64,000 nucleotides of DNA, taken from contig CP089276.1 of NCBI GenBank assembly GCA_023920165.1, positions 4,526,001-4,590,000 of the forward strand, written 5' to 3'. The notes under the pieces were generated by a model, which was given only the letters and a program-made list of their open reading frames with translations, searched no databases and was not told where the DNA came from. This DNA comes from Curvularia clavata. Lineage: Eukaryota. A program made the position numbers and the translations under genes. Shown in pieces: positions 6,359 through 27,900 of this stretch; within the stretch, counting starts at the first letter, position 1; every line of letters begins with the position of its first letter.

Positions 6359-7378
6359 CTACTTCGTTGCAATGGTTGGGACAGCCAGCCTTGGGAACAA
6401 AGTCTTTGCAGAACTGTTCTCAATCCCATCTCGATATTCAGCACTCAAGGTCTTACTAGCGTCCAATTGTTTGGTTGTTCGCTTGATAATCTCTGGAGGG
6501 CAGTTCGGGAAATCGCTCCCAAACAAGATATGGCCCGGCTTCGCGATGGCTTGTAGTGCAGCTAATTGCTCTGGCGCGCTGCACATTGCAGTATCGTAGT
6601 AAAACCATCCAAGCTCTTCGCGGATGTCCTCTGCGCTCTTCTGGATAAAAGGCGTCGATGCCAGTCCAGCCACACGAGAAGCGACCATAGGTAGCGTACC
6701 ACCTCCATGTGAGAGGATGATGCGACAGTCGGAGGCGTGCAAGCGGAGTCTATCACTAAGGATAAGATCCATCGCTGTGCGCGCTGACTCGTGGGGATAG
6801 TCCATCATAGGCAGTGGGAGGCTCTTGTTGACTTGGGTAACACCGACCGCAGAAGTAGGATGAATAAACACAACAGCCTTGCGCTTATTAAGTTCTTGCC
6901 AGATGGGAATAAAGTCCGCATGGCCAAGGTAGCGATTGTCTGAGCCATAGCGTGTCATGAATACAACTCCATCAGCGTTGAGTTCATCTAAGGCGTATCG
7001 AATCTCCGCAAGGCATAGCTCAGTGTCGCTAAGAGAAGGTACACTGGCGAAGAATCCGTAATGTTCTGGGTCCGAGTCACGCACTTTGGCTGAGAACTTA
7101 TTCAGTTCACGAGCCAGCGCTGCAGCTTCCTTTGGGATCGTCTTGACAGTAGGACCAGGAGATGTGTGGCTCAAAATTGCAGTATTTACTCCAATACTCT
7201 CGCATAATTCGCGGTCGCTCTGGATGGTCCACTCTGGCACGTACCATCCCGAAGGATCTCCGCCTTCCTCTTCGAGTGCTGAGACTACAATTAGCGATAG
7301 ACTCAGTATTTCAGAGACACACATACCTTGCGCATAGGCGGGTGAGTAGACATGATGGTGAACGTCAATCTTGCCCAT
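6359..7378 (-). CDS. Amidohydrolase-2 family metal-dependent decarboxylase (6-methylsalicylate/ACMSD-like)
   Basis: Motifs KIDVHHH, VFIHP, ILSHGGG, YYDTA and ILFGSDFP. Probable in-frame 48-nt intron at 7279-7326 (GTATGT..GCTAAT..CAG). Confidence 0.88.
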   Translation of the reverse strand: MGKIDVHHHVYSPAYAQGMCVSEILSLSLIVVSALEEEGGDPSGWYVPEWTIQSDRELCESIGVNTAILSHTSPGPTVKTIPKEAAALARELNKFSAKVRDSDPEHYGFFASVPSLSDTELCLAEIRYALDELNADGVVFMTRYGSDNRYLGHADFIPIWQELNKRKAVVFIHPTSAVGVTQVNKSLPLPMMDYPHESARTAMDLILSDRLRLHASDCRIILSHGGGTLPMVASRVAGLASTPFIQKSAEDIREELGWFYYDTAMCSAPEQLAALQAIAKPGHILFGSDFPNCPPEIIKRTTKQLDASKTLSAEYRDGIENSSAKTLFPRLAVPTIATK

Positions 7379-7894
7379 GGCTGTAGTTGAGAAGTAACAA
7401 ACAATTTGTAGTCTACAATGTTGCAGGCACAGGATGAGAATGGATGTGTTGTCGCTCTATATATTGGAAGGACGGCTACGTCATAGCGGCTATGTTAGAA
7501 ACCAAAGTATGTGTTCCGCGATCAAACACGCCGAACATAACCACCTAAACTGTATCCTTCCAATAATCCACACGACCGAGCCTGCCAGCGGAGACACTGG
7601 CGGTACCACCGGTGCTGCTGTCGGCCGATGATGCTCGGTGGTCAGACTGGAACGGAACAAGCTAGTAGCTCGTTTGGGAATAGTCGTAGTCACAGCCAAT
7701 CGCTGCATGATCCGAACTGTGCCGAGTACAGACTTCTTGAATCCTCTGCGACGTTCCTGGGGCCTTCGGGAGGGCCGTTAAATGTCACGATATAATAGCA
7801 CTAATAGCTCAAATACCGACGCAACCTAATGGCACCTTGATTCAGTATTCAACGCCCTCCTTTGGCTCTCAGCTCTTGTCCATTTCATACAATC

Positions 7895-8737
7895 ATGCCT
7901 CATCTCACCGTTCCCGGCGCAGTCCTGCATTACGAAGTCTTCGGTGCCGGAAAGCCTCTTTTTGTCTTCATACCCGGCGCCGATGGCAGAGGGAGCATTT
8001 TCCATCCAGTTGCCAAACTTCTAGCAACCTACTACACCACCGTTTGCTGGGACCGACGAGGCTACTCACAGAGCTACCTTGTCGGCGCCCAGGACTTCCA
8101 ACACCGGCTCCAAGCGGACGCTGATGATGCTCACCGCCTCATCCAACACCTTTCACCCACAAGCGTTGCCACCGTCTTTGGAACTTCTTCTGGCGCCGTC
8201 GTTGCCCAACAGCTGCTTAGCACTCATCCTGAGTCGGTAGAAAAGCTGATTTCTCACGAGCCGCCCTCGTTTTCGCTTCTTCCTCATGAGAAACAGGTCC
8301 AAGGGCGCAGTCTAATTGACCATATTTACAACACATACCGCTCTCAGGGCTACGAAAGCGCAATGAGCGTTTTCACTTCGGGGTTGTCTAATGGGCCTGA
8401 AGCAGAGATCATGCGCTCCTGCATGGATGCGAAACGTGGCGATGAAATCCGCGCCAATTGTTTGTTTTGGTTTGAATTCGAACTTAGACAATATACAGGC
8501 GCTGAAGTCGATATCGAGGGTCTGAGAAGGTCGAAGGACAAGCTGGTTCTTGTTGCAGGGGAGGATAGTGGAGACGGACCCTCTGTTGAGCCAATGAGAG
8601 TGCTCAGCGAAGAGTTGCAGGTGCAGCTCTTAAGGGTGCCCGGGGCCCACCTGGGATATGTTGTTGATCCGGCAGCATTCGTAAGGCGGCTTTTGGATCT
8701 ACGCGACAATCTGCGCGATAATCTGCGCGACAGATAG
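7895..8737 (+). CDS. Alpha/beta-fold hydrolase (esterase/acyltransferase-like)
   Basis: ATG at 7895, intronless. IPGADG oxyanion region, WDRRGYSQS, nucleophile GTSSG, HEPP and C-terminal PGAHLGY. Confidence 0.88.
   Translation: MPHLTVPGAVLHYEVFGAGKPLFVFIPGADGRGSIFHPVAKLLATYYTTVCWDRRGYSQSYLVGAQDFQHRLQADADDAHRLIQHLSPTSVATVFGTSSGAVVAQQLLSTHPESVEKLISHEPPSFSLLPHEKQVQGRSLIDHIYNTYRSQGYESAMSVFTSGLSNGPEAEIMRSCMDAKRGDEIRANCLFWFEFELRQYTGAEVDIEGLRRSKDKLVLVAGEDSGDGPSVEPMRVLSEELQVQLLRVPGAHLGYVVDPAAFVRRLLDLRDNLRDNLRDR
8697..8732 (+). repeat. 12-bp tandem repeat x3 (ATCTRCGCGAYA) at the 3' end of the hydrolase
   Basis: ATCTACGCGACA ATCTGCGCGATA ATCTGCGCGACA, encoding LRDNLRDNLRD. Confidence 0.9.
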
Positions 8738-9080
8738 AAGCCGAACAACAGGGATAGTTAAGTTCAAACGAGAGCATCTACGTATGTGAATTGCCTACGT
8801 TTCCCAAGATGAGGGTTTCGGTTGGGCATTGTTTTTTCCTATATGATGAAACTAACGCTCGGTTACCTCGGGATCCCTATTCGGGGGTCTTTTTGTTAAC
8901 CTGTCTCAATTGGCGACAAAGGTACTGGCTCAGCTCCTGCCACTGGGTATATGGCCGCGCACGGTTGAATGTTCATCACATCTTTCACACTGGTGAGCCA
9001 GTACGGGCAATCCGCTAACCGCGCTTTGGCACATGCTGGATGGGTAAACTATGTTGGCTTGTACCTTACCAATTCTACAA

Positions 9081-11268
9081 TTACAGAGTATGTTCTGCGT
9101 TGAAAATCGATTCGAAATCAAAATGAAAGGGGAGATCTTGAAGCAAATTTGAAAAGTCAATGTCTGCAAAGCCTTCTCTGCCAGGGTCGCCGTTCACCAA
9201 CCGCGCTGAGGTTGAATTATCCTCTATTTGCTCTATCCTTGTGACCATTCGCTGCAAAGCTGACTTGCAAACCTTGACCGCCTCGCTTAGGTGCTCGTTT
9301 TCCTGAAAGAACATCTGAGCGTTTTGCCAAGCCGCTTCAGTCGTCGAACGTGGAAACATGTCGAGCCGTAAAGTGGAGACAGCGAGGACCATAGCTGCCG
9401 TGTACATGTAGTACACCCTAAACCACCAAGCGGGCAGAATAGTGCATATGTCAAGCATGCTATACTGGGTGATAATAGATATGGTGTTTTGCGCGGCTCT
9501 GACACATTCTGAAGCACATCTTTCTAGCATATGCTCAGTCAAAATGCCATTCGGGTGGCTGTCGGGATCTGTTTCCGAGCAGTATCGGGCCAGTAAGGGT
9601 CTGAATAGAAGAATTCGTGAGTGTAGAAGTCTGCCAGAATATTAGTATGGCATTGATTCAATCTGACATCCTGTATGTCACTTCTTAGCGTTCTTACCGC
9701 AGGTGAAGAACAGCGGCTTGTCTCGTAGTAGAGGCATCGCGCAAGGAAGAGGAGCTTTCGTATTTCAAAGATCCAGGCAAGGAATTCTCCCATCTCCTCA
9801 AACAGCCATCAAACCGGAGGATATGAGCCATGTTTTTCTCTGCTTTGCTCGGCTCAAGAAATTGTACGTGTCCCACGCTAGAATTTTGAGTCCGTGGTGG
9901 TGAAAAGTACCTCCAGACTGCACAATAAATAATCTCAGACAATTCCAATGAAGCCGCCACGAAACCATCATAAGTAAGCTGATCATTCCTGTCTTCCTCC
10001 GAACTCAAGTGGGATAGAGATCGGATCGTTGATGCTGTGTTGTCGGGGATCATTGAGGGTCGCCCATGAGCAATGCATATTGTTCTAGATCGAGTATGAG
10101 CTTTGTATGACATATGGGATGCTTCTCGTCGTACCTGTCCATGATGACACACGACTGCCAGACACGACGCTTGAGAGCCGCACCTTCATCGCCAGGCGTC
10201 GACCAAACCTCTGTCAGATGAAGACCAAGGCTTTGCGCAATTCTCACAGCCGAACCTACTGTCATCCAGGTCTGATGAGGTTGGTTTGTGCATTGCAAGT
10301 ACTGGCTAATTAATAGTAGACATTGCACTAGGTCAATTGATCCTTTCTCCCAGACAGTTAATTGGAGAAGGGCTTGTGCTCGTCGAAAATACTTTCCGCT
10401 TAACCGCTCTCTCCCGTTTCGATCTGTCGATTCATGCAGCTGAACAGCGAATGCGAACATAGCATTAAGGGTGCTCAAGAGTATTCGTTCATCGATATCG
10501 GCGGTCTTGCCGAAGAACAGAGCATTATATGATTGCATAAAGCGTGACCTGTCAGGTACCGGAAAAAGTGGGTGCATAACAGACCAATAAGTGTGGACGA
10601 GTTCATCAGCTTGCCTGCGCGGAGGCAACTCATACTCCGTAGCATCGGCTAGACTGTTGAGCACATTGTCACCGTGAGGGGAGGGGAAGATCGGAACATC
10701 GACCAGCGGTGTAGCAGATGGACTCTGAGGCGTGGACATGGCCCCAGATCGTAGGTCGATTGCTGCTTTGATTTGGTTGGTAAAGGCGCTATGGCTACTA
10801 TTGCCAAACCTGGCATTAGTTGCACGATTATTGCAGTCCGTATGGGAGTCAGTCAACGTGGGCAGCGCTGGTTCTGGCCCATATATATTGTGCGGTTGAG
10901 ACACTAAACTTATTCCAGGCGTCTGAAAGTCTCTTAATTGTTGATGCTGGATAGGTTCACTCCCGAGTTCTGATAAAGGAAAAATCGCCTCTCCTGACGG
11001 ACTTGGGATGGGCAGCCTCGAAGTTGAGTGCTCCGCAGTGTTTGGTGAGTATTCACATTTTTCTCGAAGTGCTGGTCTTTTCAGACAGTTCCCGCATACT
11101 AACACTTGGTCAGCAATGGATTGGACGAGTATACTACGACACCGGACCTGGCCGAACAGCATCGCATTTGATCTTCCGTCTGCGACAAACATCGCAGGCA
11201 TGCACGACCTTGAGGCGCTTCCTCCGAGGCATTGGAGCCGATTGGCTAGCAGAGCACCTTGGATCCAT
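9081..11268 (-). CDS. Zn2Cys6 transcription factor with fungal-specific TF domain (multi-exon)
   Basis: ATG at 11268, then RKRLKVVHACDVCRRRKIKCD, an intron, and CGNC..C. Middle homology region has LPPRRQADELV, HPLFPV, AVRIAQSLGLH and KRRVWQSC. C-terminal exon contains LPAWWFRVYY. Confidence 0.9.
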
Positions 11269-12214
11269 GAATACTATTGTATGAATATGGTCTACACAAC
11301 CTCAGAGCGGGATGAAAGAGGACGATGTCAGATTTTGCAGCTGGCGAATCGCTGTTCATTCCGTATCGTTAGTGGCAACCGCAAAGTCTCAACCAATCGC
11401 TGTACGACCCGAGATATCCTTAAGATCCGCGCATCCCGAGCGGGAGTCCCACCCAATGAGTTCGTCGCGCCGACGCATGTTCCGATCTCCAACATTTGTA
11501 TCACCACTTCCACCAAGCTATAGCCAGCCTAACGGATTATAACACGTGGCAGACACGGTAGTGTTGTGTCCCTCCAGAAATAAAAGCTAGGACACAAAAG
11601 TGGGTTAACTCCAAGGGCCTATTGGGTAAACCAAATCGGAGGCTCCAGATTGCGACAAATGGTGGTGAACCGGCGCCGAATGCTGATCAAGGCAAAACGG
11701 AGAAGTAATCGGCGGTTCTTTTCCGGCAAGAAACACTAGATTTCTATCAAAATGGAGGCTTCAATTTGCTAGCGTTCACTACTAGCCTAAACTAGCTATC
11801 AATGTTAATAGTGTTTGTTAGGCAGATAGGTTCCTGTATTCTGAAAACGCGATAATCACTGAAATCTCAAAACAGTACCTTGATGGACGACCAGTCAGGT
11901 AGGAGAACAATGTCTTTACGTCTATATGACTTATGTCGCTGCACAATCTGCCTTGTGAACATCAGTGTCGCGAGACGCTACAATGGCAGTCTAAGTCGGA
12001 TTGTTCTACCCGCTGGTACCATGCCCACGTGCGCTGTCCAACGCAAGTTGTGACGCGGGGCGGCGCAGGTGGCTCGATGTGCCCAGCATCCGCTCAGCCT
12101 GATTTCATGCACTGCCTCGACAGGCAGCCTTTACAGCAGCCCAGCAGAAGCTTCCTCTGTCTGCCTCGCTCTATCGCGACTATACCTTTCTGCTGTCGAC
12201 ACTGTTAAAGTTGT

Positions 12215-13020
12215 TTGCGTCTTGCCTTTTCTAGACTAAGCTAAGATCGTAAATACTATATAGCTTCTCTACTTTGATGGGCTAGGGAAGCTCGTCTTAA
12301 CAGATTTCTATGGTAAAATAATCCTGCCCTACACTATTCTATTGTATAGATAGAGCGATGCTAAGAATTTTATTGAAGATATATTAAGTGGATCTATAAC
12401 AAGAAGAAAGAAGATTATTAAAAACTTAGGTTCTATACTAGTTAAATAGTACAGGACGAGCTGTAGTACTTCTAGATCGATATATACACTATATTGATAG
12501 ATGTAATCTTTACAAGTAGTTAAAAGTAATTAACTTGGTATTTTAGTAGTATACAAATGTTGTCAGGACCTGACCCAATCTGGGCCAGTCTAGTCCAAAT
12601 TCCCCCCGCCCTGGCTATATTAGTCAGCTAGGGCTTGCTTAGGACTATAAAGTTCCAGTGATCGCTAGAGACGCTCGATAGCGATTCATCTTGTGAATCT
12701 ATGGCTGTTAAAGCATAGTTCTCTCTAATCTGTCTCGTGCTGTACTATTATCCTACTAACAGTCTAATACTCTATAGCTGACTCTATAACTATCATAGCT
12801 AGCTATCTATGTAAAGATTTCTATGTAGTGTATTTATATATATAGTAAACTACTATTAAGTTTCTAGAAGATTCTATTATTTAGATCTCTAGTTATACAC
12901 CCCTGTAGTTTGAGATTTTGGTGAGATTTGAAGTGGCCCATTCGCCCGTGAGGTACGTTAATAGTATTAGATGAACCCTACATATAGACTACTTTTCACG
13001 CACTAATGGTGTAGTATCTC
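12215..13020. mobile_element. AT/TpA-rich RIP-degraded repeat relic containing a roughly 200-bp LTR-like segment (12561-12761)
   Basis: Abrupt rise in AT and TpA with no ORFs in the supplied track. The inner segment starts TGTCAG and ends CTAACA (CTGACA with one RIP-type G>A) and contains a TATAAA. No matching TSD was seen. Confidence 0.5.
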
Positions 13021-13175: not shown

Positions 13176-15099
13176 CTACACGGGAAGCGAAAGCGGCCAC
13201 AACGCCAGACTCCAAGTTCGGGACTCTAGCCCTCCAAAACCGCCATGACATGTTCGCTCCAGAAAAGGGCGAATCCCAGTGCTCGTCCCACCAGCAGGAT
13301 AAACCCTCGTCGTCAAAGCCGTGCGTTCGTTGACGAAGACTTGGACCACGCTGGTATCGTACACCACGTGGAATGCCAGTGCCTCGACCATCGGCCTTCC
13401 AGCAAAGTGTCCGTCCATGCGCCGCTGCTCAAACACGAACAGGGTGTGGGGCGCTTCTTCTGGACATGTTCGGATCCCGTGAAGTGAGGTAGAGCAACTT
13501 CGGTCAACGACAATCGTCTCGGACTTTGCGTTAAAGTAAACTCGGGTGAATTCGGCTGCGGAAAAGCGCATTAGTGCGTGCATTCCTTTGTATCACATGT
13601 CCGTTCTTACTGGATGAATGTATAATGTCGAAGCCCACTTTGGCAACGTCTTCCTCGACCTGAAACTCTGCCTTCATCTCCCATTGCGACCAGGCTACGG
13701 GAAACACGAAGCCGCCGCTCCAACTGCGTGTGGGACTGTCCCTTGAGGGAAATTTGCTTCCTCGCAGTTTACTTAATCGAGGATCGGGCACAGCACATAG
13801 CGTAACCGTTGTGAAGCTAGAGCAATGCTTATTCTCTGGGATCAACTCGATGCAGCCGATAGACTGAAGTGGAGAAGATAATGCGCCTATGACAGATGTC
13901 AAGACTTGCATTTTGAGAACTCGTGGCAAGGAAATAACGCCAGCCCATCCCTGCCGCTGGCGGACTTGTGCATCAAGGTCGTCTTCGAGAATCCAGCCGT
14001 ATATGACTTGCTGCTGTGTTTGTGGATCCCAGAACGAGTTGCCCGCATAGTAAAGGCCATGATCCAGTCTACCTCCAAAACGAAACTTCATTTGTACACC
14101 AGCCGCAGCCGTGAGGGTGCCACAAAGCCACATCTGCGCATTGGTGGCTCGAAAGTTACCCTTTGTGCGTATCGTTTCTGCAGTGGCGAGCCGACCTTCA
14201 ACGCCACATATGAGAAAATCGCGGAATTGCTTGCCATCAGTACTTGCCAAAGTTACAAAGTTGCTCACCTCCCAATTCATGCCAAAATCTCCTGTCCATC
14301 GCGGCGAAGGGCAAAAGTTCAAACCAGGAGTAATCAGCGGGCCAAGATACTCCCATGTATCGAGTGCATGGGCATGAACCTGATAGAGGAAGACAGTTGG
14401 CGTCTTGCCTCGAATTCCTCCTGCTACCACGGCATACAGTGATTTCTTGTCCGGGTTCAATGACTGTTGCTTGACAAGCTTTTCCAGGGATGGCCAGGAA
14501 GCTACAAATGGATCTCGCCAGCCAGTCACGTCGATTCCCGATGGAGGTTCCGCGAGGACTGGATTGCCTGTGTGTCTTTTCCATGTCCTCCCAGAGTCAT
14601 TCGATGTAGATAAAGCGACTGCCTCTGATGTCCGAAAGTATGGCCGTGTGTAGTGAATAGGGAGGCGAGACACTGAAGTATACAGCGCTGTCAAAGTGCC
14701 ATTCTCTGCACCATCAATTGCGGTAGGTACAAGACAACCGGTGAATACACCTCCGGGATCACATTGTGCAGAGGGCTGCATAGATGGATTACTTGAGACC
14801 TGCCAAGTGAGAAGATCGTGGGATATTGCGGCGCCCCAAGAGATGTTACCCCATTCTGTGCTGTTTGGATTCCATTGAAAACCAAGATGATACAACTTGT
14901 TGATCGGATCGTAGCCAGGTGCACAAGGGTCGTTGAGCCAGCCACGAGGTGCCACGAGATGCAGACGTGGTCGCCATCGCTTACCTGGTTCAGGTGCCGC
15001 GTCGATGTCAAGAGGGGCGGAAGATATGCTCACAATAGGTAGTTTCTTGACTACCGGAGGAGTGGTTGAAGTAACAATGAACGACGTTTGTGAAGCCAT
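13176..15099 (-). CDS. Intracellular GH32 beta-fructofuranosidase (invertase-like)
   Basis: Catalytic motifs WLNDP, WRDP and WEV, with no signal peptide. A 55-nt intron at 13556-13610 joins in frame to the beta-sandwich exon (DTSVVQVFVN..TTRVYP). Confidence 0.93.
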
Positions 15100-15492
15100 A
15101 CCACCAGAGTTTCGAAAGAGGGTCTGTACACGGTAATCGGAATATACAATCCACGGGTGTTCAAGCTATTAGAAAAATTCCTCCACGTAATAACGAGAAC
15201 GTCATTTCAAAGCATTCATGGTGGCAACCACTCATGAGCGCCGCCCGTGGGTAGACATTATCATCCATAGCCAGGCGTTTGGAAAACTAAGGCCTCGCAG
15301 CATCGATATCAAAATCTGGGAATTTGCCCAAAGTGGTGTAGCCTTGGTCAATGGCTAGGCTGGAGCTCGACGGGATTTCGACAAGACGGGTTAAGTAGCG
15401 AACCGTGCGGGGCTGGTGCGACAATGGGCGGCTCGCCTGATCGGCAATTGTGAACGCACATGCGTTGTCGGCACAGGTCCCCGCAGATACCC

Positions 15493-15506
15493 CCGTGGGG
15501 TGTCCG
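15493..15506 (-). promoter_or_regulatory. CGG-N8-CGG site overlapping a CreA-type GTGGGG
   Basis: Minus strand reads CGGACACCCCACGG. Plus strand has GTGGGG (SYGGRG) at 15495-15500. It lies in the divergent GH32/TF promoter. Confidence 0.45.
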
Positions 15507-15657
15507 ACTCCACTCTGTAGCTCGGTGCGTGTTTTGCAGAGCACAGGAGCTTGTTCATGCCGTACCACGATCCAACTGTCAACGGGATGCCTATCCGGTT
15601 CGATGCGGTACCGCTCTTCGAGTATCAAACCAACCTTCTGATTTCCGCCTAGGCAAA

Positions 15658-17855
15658 ATGGGTGAGCAGGTCATCTTCGATAGCACCCTTGTCCGAACTC
15701 TGCAAACACGGTCTTGCGATCAATGCTTTGTACGCAAGAACAAGGTAAGTTGTTTGAGCTCCCGTTTGAACTAACTGAAAGTCTTATTAAACCAATTCGG
15801 GCAGTGTAGTCGACATGCACCGTGTCATACATGTGTTGCACATCAAAGACCATGCACATACAAACGCCGATCCCAGTACCGTCGGCGGGCGCCATACATG
15901 TGTGTCTCTCTCTAAGGAATTTGTTTTGTGACAATCTCTACATGCGTGATATCATTACGTTGTTTGCGTACTTTGAAGAACCTCTGCGTCGTTACGTAGG
16001 ATGCTAATGGAAATCCAGATCTAGTACCCAATCCTCCACAAATGAAATTGCCTCAGATTTTTCAGCAAACGAGATGCCTAGTCTCAGAGTCGCTGACGAG
16101 ATAGGTTTGCAAAACGGAAACGGGAGCACATCACCAGAGGCAATGGATGTCGAGAATAGGGGTATTGTAGAGGCTGATGACACAGTCAACGACCTGCTAA
16201 TGTCTATCAACCAAGAGTCCGCCTTTGACAGCTTTGACTGGATGAAACTCAACGTGATTCCTTATATGACACCTACGACGCAAGACGACACTATGCTGAT
16301 TGGGAATATCCCTTTGTTACTTGGGGACAGCATACCAGCGTCATGGTCACAACCGTCATGGCCAGTCAATGTTCAGAACCTCGATCCGGACCCACATCTT
16401 CAGGTTGCGCGTTCCGCAACGATTGGAAACATCTTGCACATCATCTATCTCTTCCTTGATCGTCTACACGCGTCGATGCCTTTCTTCAAGCGGTCCTACT
16501 TGATTGACAACATTCACGCACAGCGACCCTTGCATGATCAGTCGTTCAACGCGCTTATACATGCTATCAGCGCCTTGACCGTCTTCCAGATGGTTCAGAA
16601 AAGCTCTGGGCACCCGAACATAACGGATGAAATTGATAAGGCAGAAATGTTCCTCGCAGAAGCCGTGCGATTGCATTCTCATGCTGATTTTGGAGAAAAC
16701 CCGGTTTTGGAGCATGTCCTCACCAGCGTTTTCTTATTTGGTTGTCAGTTTTCAAAAGGCAACCACCATGCTGCCAGATTTCGGCTGCGGGAAGCAGTTA
16801 CCCTTGCCGAAACCATGGGTCTGGATGACCCGCAAACATATGAGAGTGTTTCAAGGGACGAGAAGGACAGAAGATTAAGGACTTTCCTCTGTCTGACTGT
16901 TATCCATCGGTATGTAGCAAGGCTAGCATAACCGCAGTCTCCCTCTGCCGCCATTACTAACGAAATATATAGCGTATATGCCATCCAAAGAGATAGTCCA
17001 GTAAACGATTATCTTCTCACTAGCAACCGCTTGCACATGGTTCGCAGTACTCTGAAGCAGTTAACTATGAATTCAGGCCAGCAGGACGAGAAATCGGTAG
17101 CGGGACTGGGCTATATGGTGGACCTGATAGACTGTGTCGATTCTGCATTTGTGAAATGTTGGAGAAACCAATGCTGGGAAGACCCACAGCCTAATCACAT
17201 TTCAGCAAGGACCATCTCTGCGCTTTTGCAACGTCACACAGCACCCATGCCCATGAGGGAATCGCCAAACGATGCTCAACGAGCCGACGTCCTCATTACC
17301 AGACATTGGATTTGTCACATACTTTTGGACCTCGCTTCTCGACACGGGTTTTTGCAGAAAGAAAACCAGCTAGCCCAGATGAGGCCGGACTACGCGTTGA
17401 CAATAGCGCGTGATGCTATTGAAACATGCGAATCCCTTGAAATGGCGTCATTGGAATGTCACGGGATCGGTTTGGTATGTATCAATCTACGACCATCGAA
17501 TTGAACTGGTGTAGCTGAGACATCAAAGGTGGAGAAGCTTTACGATATCATCACAAGTGCTATTAAAGCCACACAATCAGCTGAGATTATTCCTGAGAGA
17601 CCTCATCTACATAGTGCTGCGTTCAACCAAGACGAAGATGCCATACGAACATGGCCATTGGGAACGATAGTTGATCCCGCTCCAACTGACGAAGATGGCA
17701 GCCTTTGGCATGACGAGATGACGCACTCAATAAGTACTCCGTGTTTGACCGATATTGCAAATCGGTTTCTTGTCATATTTGCGTCGTTTCGCGGTGGGAA
17801 GCATCCGTACCTGAAGCCATATATGCGAATGCTCTGTGATTTGGATCTCGACTAA
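15658..17855 (+). CDS. Zn2Cys6 transcription factor, AmyR/MalR/InuR-like sugar regulator (multi-exon)
   Basis: ATG at 15658. CDQCFVRKNK|CSRHAPCHTCVAHQRPC spans intron 15745-15804. LREAVTLAETMGLDD, QRADVLITRHW and LECHGIGL|VEKLYDI resemble the AmyR/MalR-type C-terminus. Confidence 0.88.
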
Positions 17856-18158
17856 GGAGCGGTGAGACTCTCTTAATGGGTATGTACATGAGGAATTCTG
17901 TTTCTGCTCATCGATTTGAGCTAAATCTTCATTTAGACAATGAAAATGCTTTTCGACAAATTCCATACCAGGTTACGGCTATCTTCATCTCACGTTTTAT
18001 CCTCATCCTTATATCTTTATTTCTCAAAAAGCAGTGTAATATTCAATATCCTACAACAATAGTTGCAGCCCTCGATGCATCGGGGCATTTCATTCCGCTA
18101 CGGGCATTTTAGCCTATGCCTATCCGTTCCCAATTCCTTGAGAGCCATAGAGACAAGT

Positions 18159-19848
18159 TCATAGCTTCTCAGTATGTGTTACTTGTAAGCCAGCTTTATC
18201 TTCATTCATGAAGTTTTCGATATTTACGCTGCACACATAATCTGAGACGCCAGTTAGCGGAAGTTTCTTTCGTCTACCCGACAAAAATTTGCTTACTTTT
18301 GAATTGTCGCGCTGGAATGCCTGCCTCAAACATCTCATCTAGCTCAGCTGGGGTGCGTCCTTTGGTCTCGGGGAACCAGAAGAAGGTTACAATGATGCAT
18401 CCCAACATCCAGCCCGCAAAGATAAGGTACGTCTTGGGTCCAAGATTGGCACTGGCGCATTATCAGTATCTTGGCAATAAACCAAGGGCTGCAAAGCAGC
18501 CAAGTAGAAGAACTTACGGGGCGTTGGCGATGTACGGCATGATATATTGGACAGCAGTCGAGAAACAGGCCAAGACGAAGAAGGAAAAAGCACTCGTCTT
18601 GTTTCGTAAGCGAGCAGTTGGCATCTCCCCCGAGACAACATATGTCAACGGTCCAAAGCCTGCAGCAAAGAAGAATGCAAACATGCAGCAGAATGCGGCG
18701 ATGGTCTGGCTGAGTCTCTGGTTGTGGAGGTAGTCGGTGAAACCCAATACACCGATGACCAGGTTGATGAAGAACAGAATTATGAAAGTAGTCAGCGCCA
18801 GTGGGCGTCGGCCAACCGCATCTACAACGAAGAGACCAGTTATCGCACCACCAAAGGCTAGGATCGAGGTTGCTAGGGCCAAGAGAAACGGACTGATACT
18901 GCTACCGATTGTAGCTAGAAAGATCACTGCGTAGTTGGTGGCAAATACAATGCCAGAAAGTTGTTGCATGTTGGCGATGCTGAGTGCCAACAACGTGCGG
19001 CGAAGATTGACACCTTTGAAGATATGTGTCCATGGTACCTCGACGTCATTTGCTCTTAATGCCGCTTGTGCCTTCAATGCGGCAAATTCGGCTTCGATTT
19101 CTTGCTCGTGATACCCTTTCCGCACCATACGAAGGCTCTTGAGCGCTCGCGAGTCTTCACTGCGAGTAAGGTAAAAGGTTGGCGAATCGTCTATGAATAG
19201 GAAGCCGATGACAAGGATAACCGGGAAGGCAATTTGTAAACCCATCGGAAATCGGAAGGCGAATTGGCTCATATCGGTACTGACAGCCCAGTTGATTCCG
19301 TTGGAAAGCACGGCTGCGGAGTCAATGGTGACGATGGACAGCCCAATGAGCACTCCGCGTAGCTCGTCAGGTGCAATCTCAGCCAGAAACGTCGAGCCCA
19401 TCACAATAAAGAGAAAAATGGCTGCATTAGCAAGCCAGCGCCCAATGACGAGCTGTGCCATGCCAAAGGCAGACGTTTGAATTGCCGCTGCTACGGCACT
19501 CAAGACACATCCAAAGATCAATGTCTTGCGTCGCCCCCACCTATCGCCGCAATATGCGGCCAGGGGAAGTCCGAGAAGGCATCCAGTAGTAGGGACAGCC
19601 GTCATGACACTGATATCGGTAGACGTAAGAACTGGCCCTTGTGGGCTTTTGCCAGTCCCGAATTGCTGAACAAAAGGGTGCATGGCGAGAATGCCACCCA
19701 TGACGGAGCCATCGAAGCCGAAAGTGAAGAATACCAGCGCGAGTATGAAGCTGGAGAAGATTAATCGAGGGTTGTGGACGATATGCGAAGTCCACGGTCG
19801 ACGCTGTACCGCAACGCGTGTTACATCAACAGCAGAAGATGTCTCCAT
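18159..19848 (-). CDS. MFS sugar porter, MAL-type alpha-glucoside/sucrose permease-like
   Basis: Motifs FGFDGS, DRWGRR, AEIAP..LRG, QQLSG, VGRRP, GEMPTARLRNKT and PETKGRTPAELDEMF. Two 3' introns give the C-terminus ..VTHTEKL* with stop at 18159. Confidence 0.92.
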
Positions 19849-20392
19849 GATGTCCGAGTGAGATGTGTAACGAGATGATTGGAGAAAGTCGCTGGTTCAC
19901 CATTCAATCTCGGTGGTGGATCGTTTTATGTATGATCCGTTCGCATGCACACTTACCCCAGGTTTTCCCCAGGCCAAACGTGCAAGGGGTCGGCACGTGG
20001 AAGCGTGGCGGGTATGGATCGAGGCGCCACTGAGGTCGAACCAGAGAACATGAGGCATTTTCCCGGGCGCGGAAGAAACTCCTAAGCGCCCTCGTCCTGG
20101 GATTTGCCTGATAGTGCGGAGGCCGGTTGCGCGTGCGAAGTCTGTTCATTCGATTGCGGGGATTGTCCATATTTGGTCTAGCGCGACCTGGAACGTTCCA
20201 CCCCAGGTATGGGCCAAATCGAAGTGCCGAATCGCGGAAACTGTTGCACTTGTGACACAATGTACAAAAGCTGGTCCTCCACTTAAATCGCTAGTTTTTG
20301 TGTGTATTTGTCCACAGACATCGTTGCATACAGTTAAGCTATTGTGGGTGCCCGTTGCGTCAGTCAAAGCTCTCAGTAGAACAACTTCCACC

Positions 20393-22191
20393 ATGGTCGC
20401 TGCCGGCGGTGAGGCTATTGACTCATTTCCAAATTACGAACTCAATCACAAACATCTTGGAAAGCTCATTGGACTCTCAAGAGGAGATGACATAGTTCAA
20501 TTTCGCGGTGTCCCATTTGCTACCATTGCCGCGCGTTTTCGTCAAGCTCGTCTTCTGGATGCCCTACCGCGGCAGCCATTTGATGCAAGAAAATCTGGGT
20601 AAGCCGACGACGCACAAAAGAAAAGCGGCATTTATATGTTCTAACAAATTAAAGCCCAACTTGTCCTCAACCGCCACTACCATTTCCTTCCTACTGGGAA
20701 GCATCGTTACCAGAAGATTTCCCGCCATTACCTGCACCCCTACAGGATGAATTCAACTGCCTCAACCTCAGCATCACAACAACTCGATCCATCCTTGAGA
20801 GTGACTCTGAGAGAGGACTCCCTGTTCTATTTTTCATACATGGCGGAGCATTTGTTGGTGGAAGTCAGTCTATCCAACTTGCTGGACGCGAGATTTACGA
20901 TGCGACGAACCTTGTACGCGCAAGCATAGCACGCAACCAACCGGTTGTGGTTGTTACTTGCAACTATCGCGTGGGCCCACTAGGATTTCTTGCATCTCAG
21001 GAGCTTGCGGCTTTTAATAAAGAACATGGTGAGCCAGTCGGAAACTACGGACTGCATGATCAGCGACAGGCACTGGAGTGGTGCAACAAATTCATATCTG
21101 GCTTTGGTGGTGATGCTGAAAATGTAACAATCCAGGGCACAAGTGCTGGGGGTAGTTCGGCACATTATTTGAGCACTTTTCGATCTCGAAAGTTCAAAAG
21201 AGCAATTTTGGCGAGTGGGACGTTGACAGGCATTGGTCCCATGCCATTGGCTTACCAACAGGAAAGATTCACCGCATATGTGTCCAGGCATACTAGCAGT
21301 GATGGTAGGCCTTCAGCAGATCCAGTATCCTTGCTGCAATCTATTCCTGTTGATGATTTCGTCAAGCCAATCACGGCTAGCATATATCACCCGTATATCG
21401 ACGGCGACTGGATCTTGGGGGCAACCATGCAGGATGTCTGCGACGTTTATAAGGAAGAAGCTGCACCAGATCTCATGATAGGGGCTTGCGATTTTGAGGC
21501 ATGTCCCACTCTTCCAGACACACATGGACCATTTTTATATGCTAACGGTGATTCATAGGCCGATCTAACGCAACTACTGCTTATAGATGACATACCGTCA
21601 ATGAAGCCGGCACCCGACGACCGCATGCGTGCAACAATTTTCGATCTCGCATCTTCAAACGGCATGATTGTTTCTCCTAAAAAGTTCCCAGATGCTTATC
21701 CCGATGTGACGGAGGCGTACAATATCAGCTCAGCTCTGGAGCATCCTTCCTCAGCAATGTATAGATGGGCCAACCTTTTGGCTGATATGGCGTTCAGAAT
21801 TCCGCCCCTGCATATTGCCGCCCATCATCCCGCCAACGTCCTGCTTTACGAGATTCGCTGCAAGAATCCGTATGAGAAGTGGGCATGGTCATTCGGACGA
21901 GCTAATCATGCTGTGAATGATGTGTTTCTCTTCGATGTTGCGCCGGATCTTATATCTGAGCAATTGCAAAGTGCGCATGCGGGTAACGTGGCGCAGATCC
22001 GAGCTGCTTGGCTAGACTTTTGTTATGGAAAGCTGCCGTGGATGCCGTATAGGCAGCAGGACAATAGACTAGGCCCTATCCATGTTTTTGAACATGGTGA
22101 AAAAGGTCGGGATGCTGAGAGTTTAGAAGAGGCTGTTGGACAAGATATGGCAGCTCAGTGGAGAGCGGTTTTGGATGCGAATAAGTTGTAG
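20393..22191 (+). CDS. Type-B carboxylesterase (intracellular, multi-exon)
   Basis: ATG at 20393. Motifs QFRGVPFA, DEFNCLNL, HGGAF, NYRVGPLGF, GNYGLHDQ and FGGD. Nucleophile GTSAG, with candidate acid (GACDFE) and His (ANHAV). No signal peptide. Confidence 0.92.
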
Positions 22192-23012: not shown

Positions 23013-24929
23013 TCAGAGCGGACGCAACGCTCCGCTGCGGTCCTCTGACCATCGTCCTGCTATAGCTTGCCGCATACCTTTACCCCAAAATGCGACCGGT
23101 AAGGCGACTAACCCACCCACGATCTGGAAGACCATAAGTTCAACTCCAACCCATAGATATCCATGGGCCTCAACCCAAGGAACGAGAGCGAAGCTCATTG
23201 CCCAAGAAATAAAGTAGCAACCTCCGATAACCACCGCAAGTGCTGGGGCAGCCCACCTTGGAAACGCTTCGGCAACCCACAGAGTATTTGCGGTCATTAA
23301 CATGACGAGAGAGAAACCATGACCTCCATAGGCCATGTAGATGCAGGCAGGATGCCATTGGAATTTGACTGTAAGTCCATAGAGGAGTGAACTGAAGGCG
23401 CCAACAATGATCGGTAAGACGTAGGCGATCAGGTAGTGCTCCGCCTCCAAAACGCCATGGTTGCGCTGTGAAAGCCTCTTGAGCCCATTGCAAGTAATCA
23501 CCCAACACACAGGAAGTCCTATCAATGCCCCTACGCCTGATGCTACGTAGACGGTGCCAACAATCTCAGGCGAGATATTGTATGGAGGTTGGGTGAGTAT
23601 GCGGCTATTTGTTGCGCCGATGAAGATCATGCTTGCTGAATTGAAACCAGACGCGACGAAGACCCAGAACAGAAGCGGGTTGGCGGCGCAATATGCCATC
23701 TGAATATAGCATCGACCTGCTGACCTCCACGATGCAAATGGTGATCGTGAGAGACCAATTCGGTCGCGGAAGCCTGCAAAACCTTTACGAATTGGGTATT
23801 CTGGGAGGTCTCGATATATGGATGAGTTTTCTTCACGGTCTTCGTATATCGTCAGCTTCTCGGTCGCACTTTGCATGAGAATGAGACCGTTGAAAGCCAC
23901 TGTCGGACGCTTAAAGTATGTTTCGGGATAGAGGATGAAAGTGACAAGAAGTGAAACGAAGACGGGTATAGTCCAGTAATGGTAGAATCGGCGCCAGCTC
24001 TGGCCATAATGTGCAATGACTGGTGCAAGTGCAACACTAGATGTGCCAAAGCCTCCTGCAACGCACCACATGAACGAGACTGCTCGTGGTCTTTGATTGA
24101 TGTAAGTCAAATCGATGACCATCAGAAAAGCCTTGTATAACTGTCAGTGAGAAGTGTTATAAAATGTGATGTTTGCCGCAACTCACCAAAGAGAGACCGA
24201 GTCCTTCACTGAGGCCGAGGAAACACACAGCAACCACCAATTGAGCAAAAGATCTTGCCTCAGCAGCACCGAGTGTGGCGAGCAAAACAATCATGGTGGC
24301 AATCAGGATTGTTGGCCGACGGCCCAAGCCTATCGAGAGAGGTACCCAAACTAGGCATCCGATTCCCATAAAAAGAGCTGGGCCAGTGACTAGTGCTTTT
24401 ATCAACCACGGAGCTATGTTCTGCAAAATTCTCATTAGCCAAGCATCTTAGAAAAGAGAGCAATGTAGCTGACCTCGTGTTCGAAGGTAGTCTGGATACT
24501 GTCCAGCATGACACCTGCCGCTTGTGCAGCACATAAGTTGACGGCGGAGAAAAGGACAATGGCAAAAAACGCTCCGGCAGTCTTCCTCTGGCTCCAGTTC
24601 AAAGGATCGGCTTTGCTTTCCGATGCAACAGGCAGCTTAAGGGTCCTTCCGTCATTAGTGACAAGAAAGGTGGTACCGGTCAGATTATATGATTCGCGTT
24701 TTGCGCTAGTTAAAATGCTGGCAGTCCTCGGTCTGGCACATGTCTTGGAAGAAATGGAAGGCAACCGGTTTATTTCTGGAACAGGAGGAGATGACAAAGG
24801 AGACATTTGACGAGGAACGACGATCGGTTCAATCTGAAGTGGGGGAGCCAGCTCTACCTCGGGGTGTGGATCTTCCAGCGGCGCAGCCTTGCTGGAGTAA
24901 GTGCCAGTAGGAGAAAGCATGATATCCAT
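23013..24929 (-). CDS. MFS transporter (HOL1-like, multi-exon)
   Basis: First ATG at 24929. Motifs DPLNWSQRK, GRRPT, YPETYFKRP and NHGVLEAEHYL. Multiple TM helices across three exons. Confidence 0.8.
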
Positions 24930-27900
24930 GCTAAAGAAGGACCAAGGAAACGAGTCGACAATACGAGGCAAGCCAAAAGTGGACCATAAGTACCAACGGC
25001 TAGGAATGCAGGAAACACTGGGGAACGAAAATCATTGCAAAGAACGCCACCACTGCCTTATAATCAATGGGACCTCACTCCCGCAGCTCACGCGTACACG
25101 GGTATTACCGTTAGCCGTCCGCAGATCATCTTCTTTGACGCGAGACTTCAAAGTTTAAAGTTCCTTTGAACGCCTCCGAACACATGTCATAGGATCCGGG
25201 GCATTGGAGTTGCCCAAGCAAAACCAGCAGGAAAGTAACATTTCGTCCGCCAATGAAGCTCTGAACTCGCGATGATATCCGGATGTGGAACGACCGGAGA
25301 GCCTCCAGGCATCACTGATTGGACCCAACGAGCCTCAGTTGACCAAAAGGGCACAGGATTGCCGAGCATGTCAAAAAGCACAACTTTGTGGAAGCCGCCG
25401 GCCGTAAGCCGGTGAGAACCAACCTTCAAACACGCTAAATGAGAGGACAGCGGGTGTTAGTGGCCGTTGACCCGTGCGTGTGCGGAGGCGACCGGCAGTG
25501 CTGATTCGTCGCTGGCCAACTTGTCTAGCTATCTTGGAGGAATGTCTGCGAATAAGGACTTGGGGCTCAAACGGGATGGCGTTTCGTGACTGTCATGGGC
25601 CAATCTGCTTTGTTACGCGAGAATGGAGGTGTCTGCGTTTCACAGATAATAGGCACCGCTTGATTGAAGTAGAGACTAGGTAACATGGCGAAGGCTAGAG
25701 CATAGCATCTCACGCCACGATCATCCCTATTGAAACCCTCGTCGCTTTGGAAGATTGTTTAAACTTCTTCCTGCCCAGGCCATGAATTCCATCCATTCTA
25801 GTTAAATGCGAGTTGTTGATAGGAAATGACATTGGCCCGGGCTTGACAGCTGCCCAAATTAGCGTTTAGAATGACATTGACAGAGCCTAACGCAACGTGT
25901 ATAAGACGACATATTAGGAATCTAGGCCTCGGGATCAACATGCTGACATTCTTTTCGAAGTTGTCCTTGATTTACGATAGAGAGCGGAGTTCTTGGCAGA
26001 AACGTGCCAAGGGACCTTCTCTCCTCATTTCGGGCTTACACTGTATGCTACTCAAGAACTCGCCCTCAGCAATTGTTCCCGCTCCAGGCCAGCTGGATCC
26101 TTCGAATCTCCAAGATAATGCTCATCAACCGAAAAACGTGCAGCTTCTTAGCTCAGAGGTGATCGTGGTCATTGCTTTCATTTTTGATGAATTGAGTAGC
26201 TAGGAAGCCTGTATGGGATTTGTTATCTTGCGGGCCGAGCGGTTTGCTGACAAAATTGCGGCTGTTTTGCGGACGTACTATTACGGAGTAAGTTGGGGGA
26301 TGTGCGTACGTGCATAGATAGGGCTGAGGTCGATCGCCGCTCGTGTTCTAGGACCTGGTCGATTTCCAACCCAGCTTCTGAAACGCAAAGCCCCTTGAGC
26401 GCCCATGTCGCCTACCTGCAGTTTGGGCTTGCGAAGAAAAGCCCACTACATACATCACATAGAGGATGCCTGCATCTCCGCACTATAATATGTCTTATTT
26501 CATGACGCCAGTCCGTCACACCAACGTGCTTTTCTGCAAGAGAGGAGCATTAGTTAGAGAATCGCGAATGCGCTAACTGCAACACAGCAAGATTCATGAT
26601 TCATGACCACATGTCCTGATGACAACCGACAGCCGAAATTGGTTTCGTCCAAACTTTGCTTGGGTGGGCAGAAGTGATGCGGCCGAAGTCATGGCAACGA
26701 TGCAGGTAGACGTGGCTTCAAATTGTGCTTAGAAGAGGTCCAAACTATGGTCTCTCGTCATCTGTCGTTCCTGCCTCAAGCCGGCGAGATAGATGGTTAA
26801 CGTGGTACCAAATATGAACACTCTATAATTATCATATAATTCCTGGAGACCTGCTTGTTCAGCGGCAAACTTAATTGTATACTTCTGCTGGAACAAAGTT
26901 AGAATAACGAATCCTGGGTCGAGATGACGAAGCCAGTGAACCATGTACGAGCATGTTCGTGCTTTTGAGCAAATACGCTTTGGCTGAACTCTGATGATCG
27001 AGGTCATTTCCCGGGGCTAGAGTGAACATGCTCATTGCTGGGATGGGGAATCGAATTCTTAGACTCGAAATCACCACGTCCCTGACCCAATTATGGATCG
27101 TTGAGTTGGGAAACCAGACTGCACAAATCCTTACATTGACAACTACGCTCTCAAATGGAGTTTTACGGGTTCAAGCAACCTTGTGTTCACCGTCTTAACC
27201 TGACTGTTGTACGATACTCGTTGTGTTCTAGCTTAGTATCAACCAGATCGCCGACATGAATCAAAAACCCAACCTTTTCGTAACACTTTTTCTTGCTTGC
27301 TCATGTTTTCTACATACACCACCAGAACGCCTGGAGATCCGGCAAACCTTCCCTTTTCCCATACTCGTCGTGACTTGAAACTCGACTATCCATGCAGTCA
27401 CGACGTCACTGGCTTCATCACAAGCTTATCGAACGGTTACACCGAACACAATCCTTGAGTAAATCTAGGCAGATCTTTTGCTACCAGTGATGCTGGAGCA
27501 TCGTAAATCAAGGTGTTGATGTAGGTCCGTATGAGTTTACCATTCTTTTGTAACAATACCACGCACGACATACATAACTTGGACCGATATATTCAGCTTG
27601 ACAGGACTGGCGCATGTTTCATGGTAAAAATTCAACTGGTCTAGAAAGCGAAAATTCGGGATAGAAGATAAAAGGAACCAGCGTTAGCTACTGTGTAGAT
27701 ACATTGTTCTAAAATGTTACTGGACGAGATGATGGCATTTGCAAATGTGTATACGGTTCACAGCGATGACCGGTAAACCGTTCTATAGTCATTCAAAATC
27801 TATGCTTCAAGTGCGGAATCTGAACTGCTCATTTGAAAGGGGAGTGATGAGCCTGTGGCCGTTCATTCCGTATAAAATAAGAGGATCCTCGGCTTCAAAA

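Follow-up and report, generated by a model that had tools for sequence, protein, structure and literature searches.

Why would a carboxylesterase be encoded beside an invertase-type enzyme, a sugar porter and a regulator? The question is raised by positions 13176-22191 of a 64-kb stretch of the Curvularia clavata genome (hereafter the window; C3:4526001-4590000 of an assembly that comprises 32.4 Mb in 8 contigs), for which an earlier note had proposed that an acylated sucrose or fructoside is imported, de-acylated and then cleaved. The four genes constitute a real, conserved and apparently undescribed cluster. It is probably a regulated catabolic cluster for acylated beta-fructofuranosides of any kind, including acetylated fructo-oligosaccharides, and the best fit to its substrate is most plausibly plant sucrose esters with hydroxycinnamoyl and/or acetyl groups. 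Because the porter and the predicted cytosolic esterase and fructofuranosidase are kept together with an AmyR-like regulator, the simplest explanation would be one imported molecule that contains both an ester and a beta-fructofuranosidic bond.

Gene models and predicted products

Modelling of the window yielded four intact full-length genes in two head-to-head pairs, the arrangement that the earlier note had described, including the 544-bp gap common to the porter and carboxylesterase genes. The features are as follows.

15099-13176, minus strand: GH32 gene, 622 amino acids (aa), one intron (13556-13610)
15100..15657: divergent promoter of the GH32 and regulator genes, 558 bp from ATG to ATG
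15658-17855, plus strand: Zn2Cys6 regulator gene, 633 aa, introns 15745-15804, 15900-16018, 16910-16972 and 17475-17528
19848-18159, minus strand: sugar porter gene, 522 aa, introns 18452-18517 and 18242-18296
19849..20392: divergent promoter of the porter and esterase genes, 544 bp from ATG to ATG
20393-22191, plus strand: type-B carboxylesterase gene, 560 aa, introns 20599-20654 and 21499-21558 (the latter GC-AG)

The GH32 protein matches the N-terminal beta-propeller (PF00251, E 4e-41) and C-terminal beta-sandwich (PF08244, E 4e-18) of its family, and alignment with solved fungal fructofuranosidases located the catalytic motifs WLNDP (D57), WRDP (D196) and NWEV (E277). It is 42% identical to A. 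niger An15g00320, a gene named sucB (PMC5701360). A profile search detected three GH32 genes in the genome, among which the window gene is the sole one without a signal-peptide-like start. The other two have signal-peptide-like N-termini, as read by eye, and no homologue of the cluster porter, esterase or regulator lies within ~10 kb of them. These features suggest that the window gene encodes a SucB-like, predicted intracellular member of the GH32 beta-fructofuranosidase family.

The carboxylesterase (PF00135, E 1e-44) contains the HGG oxyanion motif. Across 75 aligned sequences (the window model plus P0002-P0075), the catalytic triad residues S232, E350 and H467 are kept in 74, 73 and 75, respectively, and near the N-terminus the 11-residue Kyte-Doolittle mean stays below 2.0 in all 75. 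This hydropathy heuristic, which is not equivalent to SignalP, upholds the earlier reading that the GH32 and the esterase lack signal peptides, and both enzymes look active and cytosolic. The predicted structure of the Bipolaris maydis orthologue (predicted local distance difference test score 94) superimposes on cholinesterases and carboxylesterases with a template-modelling (TM) score of ~0.7. Sequence and fold searches confirmed the fold of the esterase and gave no pointer to an acyl group or substrate. With an esterase exon as query, the match to Curvularia clavata protein yc1106_05224 was 100% identical.

The porter belongs to the sugar porter family (PF00083), and a hydropathy scan delineated 12 segments. 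It forms part of a distinct orthogroup whose nearest paralogues in the genome are far more distant (E 1e-38 or weaker). The label "MAL-type" given in the earlier note found no confirmation, the nearest non-orthologous matches being 25–31% identical and of mixed names (maltose permease, glucose transporter, others). In the regulator, six cysteines at residues 20-46 span the first two exons, and exon 3 shows similarity to Fungal_trans and AmyR-type clusters; searches of single exons against Pfam gave no match. By these features the protein is a putative AmyR-like Zn2Cys6 transcription factor.

Transcript evidence came from four public runs belonging to two studies (4 of the 16 runs listed), whose contigs are presumed to represent RNA. 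Because these contigs skip coding introns, all four genes are very likely transcribed: each of the nine modelled coding introns is skipped, seven of them in 4/4 runs, the GH32 intron in 3/4 and the GC-AG intron of the esterase in 2/4. Contig depths in these runs cannot rank the genes by expression, and the lack of coverage of the GH32 coding region in run X7 is uninformative. The same contigs bear on the public annotations. A GH32 model of 813 aa carries a Fungal_trans domain (P0121), and we rejected it as a real fusion, since the RNA contigs agree with the short intron and with a product of 622 aa; it appears to be mis-joined with the neighbouring regulator. The public esterase model P0001 (567 aa) runs into the GC-AG intron.

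Linkage and co-inheritance across fungi

The earlier note had made its proposal depend on co-conservation of the esterase with the other genes, and this was borne out: the esterase is linked to the porter and GH32 in Dothideo-, Sordario- and Eurotiomycetes, its linkage to the porter extends to Leotiomycetes, and its tree matches that of the porter. Linkage was tabulated for 50 named species or species groups among P0002-P0075, each given a single row; unnamed rows were excluded, as were the repeats P0033, P0041, P0044 and P0063. Genes were scored as linked when their locus tags or accessions were no more than 4 apart, when a gene model ran into the partner, or when their contigs were of identical size. 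By this measure, the esterase is linked to a porter and/or GH32 orthologue in 33 rows, nine of them with both, and 16 rows held no partner data. Linkage to a porter orthologue accounts for 28 rows, 17 of them scored by tag or accession. Examples of linkage to either partner include Cephalotrichum (SPO04563/65/66), F. oxysporum (FOCG_15298/15299/15300), F. nygamai (FNYG_07359-07361) and Bipolaris, in which the GH32 gene is three accessions from the esterase. The GH32, a regulator-like sequence and the porter occur together in A. terreus, where the esterase was not seen.

A metagenome scan with the porter alignment retrieved 48 loci, 10 with a porter orthologue and 38 with distant porters. Four of the orthologue loci extend over no more than 3.6 kb and contain no other core gene. 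In the six that are long enough to test, the esterase is present in five, GH32 in five and the regulator in four. All four genes are found in three of the six (L006, L011 and L012), in three orders that each differ from that of the window, and the head-to-head porter-esterase layout recurs in L005, L006, L007 and L012. The regulator homologues, in L006, L011, L012 and L013, are 25–36% identical. As a control, the 38 distant-porter loci contained one distant carboxylesterase and no GH32, and the 11 of these that exceed 10 kb contained neither. None of ten flanking open reading frames of the window had an orthologue-level match in the porter-orthologue loci. The four-gene core is linked independently of its flanking genes.

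The esterase and the porter also share a history. Their identities are correlated over 25 linked pairs (Spearman 0.85) and in between-class comparisons (Spearman 0.78; n=218, not independent). Both trees place Zymoseptoria with Exophiala and Ilyonectria, and Leotiomycetes with Aspergillus and Talaromyces, with 99–100% local support. Approximately unbiased (AU) tests on 14 of the 25 linked pairs, picked after the first trees were seen, rejected monophyly of Sordariomycetes (p 1e-46 for the porter, 4e-79 for the esterase) and of Eurotiomycetes (p 8e-11 and 0.004, respectively). The two trees share class-discordant clades; the pair has thus travelled together or been kept as one unit, whether by transfer or by ancient duplication followed by loss.

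Two further observations concern more distant relatives. At L031:780-4548, a different, distant porter lies head-to-head with a different carboxylesterase, possibly a parallel module, with no GH32 in its 5.7 kb. F. oxysporum has extra distant copies of the porter (FOXG_15085, FOXG_14395, FOXG_21711) and of the esterase (FOMG_18875) (records P0279, P0303, P0044 and P0063).

Substrate, mechanism and alternative explanations

In the mechanism that we propose, the porter would import the intact or partly de-acylated ester, and the cytosolic esterase would strip its acyl groups, chiefly those on the fructose ring that block GH32. The cytosolic GH32 would then cleave the liberated sugar, releasing fructose together with glucose or acyl-glucose. 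The AmyR-like regulator would induce the gene set, and accessory esterases of other folds may remove other acyl groups in some lineages. The fungus would thereby gain carbon and, where the ester is antifungal, detoxify it. The esterase and GH32 would be needed together because furanose acylation blocks GH32 hydrolysis, as described for the tomato enzyme ASFF1; yeast invertase leaves an acylsucrose uncleaved (PMC6482016).

Esters are also suggested by accessory genes, which represent four unrelated hydrolase families in as many lineages. In L011, a GDSL acylhydrolase separates GH32 from the porter, and in L012 a CocE/S15 hydrolase lies between GH32 and the esterase. In L009, a chlorophyllase-like hydrolase (weak match) is found beside the porter. 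In F. circinatum, a single gene model joins a monocarboxylate-type permease to an S9/BD-FAE-like hydrolase and continues into the porter, and the permease-hydrolase model is also found in F. mexicanum and F. phyllophilum, on contigs equal in size to those of the esterases. These associations have no base rate, and fungal genomes are rich in hydrolases; the two inside positions (L011 and L012) weigh most. A second porter is present in L006.

The order of import, de-acylation and cleavage set out in the earlier note is a sound proposal given the co-conservation of the genes. The Solanaceae trichome acylsugars that it named suit the carriers poorly. Phenylpropanoid and acetyl sucrose esters fit better, because the range of carriers suits a widespread class of esters. 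These carriers include Bipolaris, Curvularia, Zymoseptoria, Oculimacula, Cadophora, Ilyonectria, Talaromyces, Aspergillus, Exophiala and Cephalotrichum, and they range from cereal and grass pathogens (Bipolaris, Zymoseptoria, Oculimacula) to root endophytes and saprotrophs (Talaromyces, Exophiala, Cephalotrichum). In F. verticillioides, the esterase was seen and its partners were not. Many plant families produce cinnamoyl sucrose esters, in which fructose C-3 is a frequent site of acylation (PMC6273327). Acetylated diferuloylsucroses with antifungal activity are made by maize, and rice contains related esters; smilaside A and smiglaside C reach ~0.1-0.2 mM in infected maize roots, and smilaside A inhibits F. 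graminearum in vitro (10.1101/332056). We tentatively raise the possibility, in which our confidence is low, that the cluster is an undescribed mobile fungal pathway by which plant phenylpropanoid sucrose esters (smilaside A, smiglaside C) would be imported, de-acylated and consumed, and whose presence or absence may help to explain fungal tolerance. The name F. graminearum is missing among the orthologue rows. Absence of the cluster would agree with the sensitivity of this species to smilaside A, but we do not claim it, as 15 of the 84 members of the Fusarium porter cluster are listed.

The cluster resembles several known systems in part. A. niger sucB, a porter gene and inuR are reportedly physically clustered, a finding ascribed to Yuan et al. 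2008. The likeness to that system lies in a predicted intracellular GH32 of the same subfamily and in the AmyR-like regulator, InuR being closely related to AmyR (PMC10142829). In contrast to SucB/InuR, the window cluster has an obligate-looking carboxylesterase partner and most cluster GH32s fall outside the SucB clade in a quick, weakly supported tree; the resemblance to InuR is one of features only. Fungal MAL clusters similarly combine a porter, an intracellular glycosidase and a neighbouring Zn2Cys6 activator (PMC11930586). With a GH32 and an esterase, and no GH13 alpha-glucosidase, the window cluster is not a MAL cluster, and the word "esterase" is absent from the main text of the MAL cluster paper (PMC11930586). 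The Fusarium FDB1 and FDB2 benzoxazolinone clusters are likewise patchy, have reportedly undergone horizontal transfer and act on a plant defence compound, and one of them includes a putative carboxylesterase; however, their chemistry is that of a lactamase and an N-malonyltransferase, and the accessible text mentions no GH32 or sugar porter (PMC4726666). Wild tomato ASFF1 is a GH32 that acts on acylated sucrose and, as noted above, is blocked by furanose acylation, but it is a plant biosynthetic enzyme that is inactive on plain sucrose, and the portion of the report consulted describes no importer or clustered esterase (PMC6482016).

A literature search by gene families, substrates and locus tags, which covered few subscription journals, found no description of the four-gene cluster or of its breakdown of sucrose esters. 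Genome-wide cluster catalogues may list the cluster without a function. Sucrose esters are widespread among plant families, and maize induces some of them as antifungal defences; we found no report of their breakdown by fungi. The four candidate genes, which occur in cereal pathogens, root endophytes and harmless moulds, make such breakdown directly testable. If the proposal is true, it would provide a substrate class for unstudied esterase and porter orthogroups and a possible source of regioselective sucrose-ester hydrolases.

Several points weigh against an acylated fructofuranoside as the substrate of the whole cluster. GH32 linkage is documented for only 14 of the 50 rows (8 by tag, accession or model), and in one row, that of Verticillium albo-atrum, the esterase does not adjoin the porter. 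In the quick tree, whose backbone is weak, one cluster GH32, that of L011, falls inside the SucB-containing group. Among the best 120 of 366 GH32 matches, those of A. versicolor, T. proteolyticus and Sarocladium strictum belong to the SucB group and lie on contigs that differ in size. As the only non-secreted GH32 of the genome, the enzyme could simply serve sucrose use. In the fold search, the solved structures nearest to the esterase were those of general type-B enzymes (19–27% identity), and the porter appears to fit no characterised subfamily among those that could be compared. When 15 intergenic regions were scanned for 64 CGG-dyad patterns and for 6-8-mers, with 200 shuffles, no common motif emerged (best p 0.01, not significant after 64 tests). 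The proposed function is built on linkage, co-inheritance, enzyme families and catalytic residues.

Some of these points would also be expected if two units had merged: a porter and esterase for some other acylated glycoside, and a GH32 and regulator that form an ordinary intracellular unit for sucrose or fructo-oligosaccharides like SucB/InuR. We regard this as unlikely, although it accounts for the identity of the GH32 to SucB, its status as the one non-secreted enzyme among three, and the excess of esterase-porter over esterase-GH32 linkage (28 versus 14 of 50 rows). The lower GH32 count may, however, stem from the use of the best 120 of 366 matches. The pattern CGG-N8-(C/A)GG, expected in target promoters of the SucB/InuR system, might likewise favour this reading: the GH32-regulator gap has two minus-strand matches (15493 and 15634), and the porter-esterase gap has none. 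Across the 15 regions the pattern is not enriched and falls outside the ten best of the 64 patterns. Against a merger, GH32 stays with the porter-esterase pair despite shuffled gene orders, adjoining the esterase in L007 and a Talaromyces gene model and the porter in Fusarium, and 18 of 19 cluster GH32s fall outside the SucB-containing group (84% support) in the quick tree.

A second alternative retains the chemistry and changes the plant: the substrates would specifically be the short branched aliphatic acyl sucroses of Solanaceae trichomes, and the cluster would help Solanaceae-associated fungi to counter this defence. A plant GH32 does cleave pyranose-acylated acylsucroses (PMC6482016), and F. 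oxysporum f. sp. lycopersici carries the cluster genes FOXG_17621 and FOXG_17623. Yet cereal pathogens are among the carriers, as are root endophytes and saprotrophs, and the listed esterase, GH32 and porter orthologue rows include neither an Alternaria nor a Botrytis name, a result limited by unnamed rows and further members. This restriction to Solanaceae seems improbable.

We consider it improbable that the cluster is a biosynthetic or transfer module, in which GH32 would transfructosylate and the esterase transacylate to make an acylated fructoside or an inducer. Acyl_transf_3 genes do flank two of the three complete loci (L006 and L011), but the two are only 26% identical, for which reason they were rejected as core members, and none was found beside the window cluster. 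The accessory genes inside clusters are, moreover, hydrolases, and a sugar porter with an AmyR-like regulator is a catabolic layout. That the esterase lies beside a three-gene sugar cluster by chance is already largely refuted and has almost no probability: the genome is rich in paralogues (34 type-B esterase and 78 sugar porter matches), but the linkage holds over four classes, the control yielded one carboxylesterase in 38 loci, and the class-discordant trees are congruent.

Untranslated regions and flanking sequence

Outside the coding regions, an intron in the 5' untranslated region (UTR) of the regulator lies near 15598-15652, and another lies near 17880-17936 in its 3' UTR. Transcript contigs are unbroken across the convergent 3' ends of the regulator and porter genes (17855-18241). 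Compared with the strain of the public runs, the coding differences that change a residue number 5/6 in the regulator, 0/4 in the porter, 2/5 in the esterase and 3/7 in GH32, counts that are too few to interpret; those in the regulator span 16050-17762.

The flanking amidohydrolase, alpha/beta hydrolase, left regulator and membrane protein at 23-25 kb were considered as cluster members and rejected, as they are not conserved with the four-gene core. At 6359-11273, an amidohydrolase-2 gene and an alpha/beta hydrolase gene form a divergent pair, which together with a Fungal_trans regulator gene makes up a second small group that possibly functions in the catabolism of aromatic compounds. The membrane protein (23013-25031, minus strand) is multi-pass and MFS-like by eye, has no Pfam match and was not found in related loci. 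Just left of GH32, at ~12560-12770, a ~210-bp repeat is situated in an AT-rich stretch with a raised TA/AT ratio. It has 47 matches in the genome (71–84% identity), many of them paired ~7.1 kb apart, and is probably a solo long terminal repeat of a retrotransposon.

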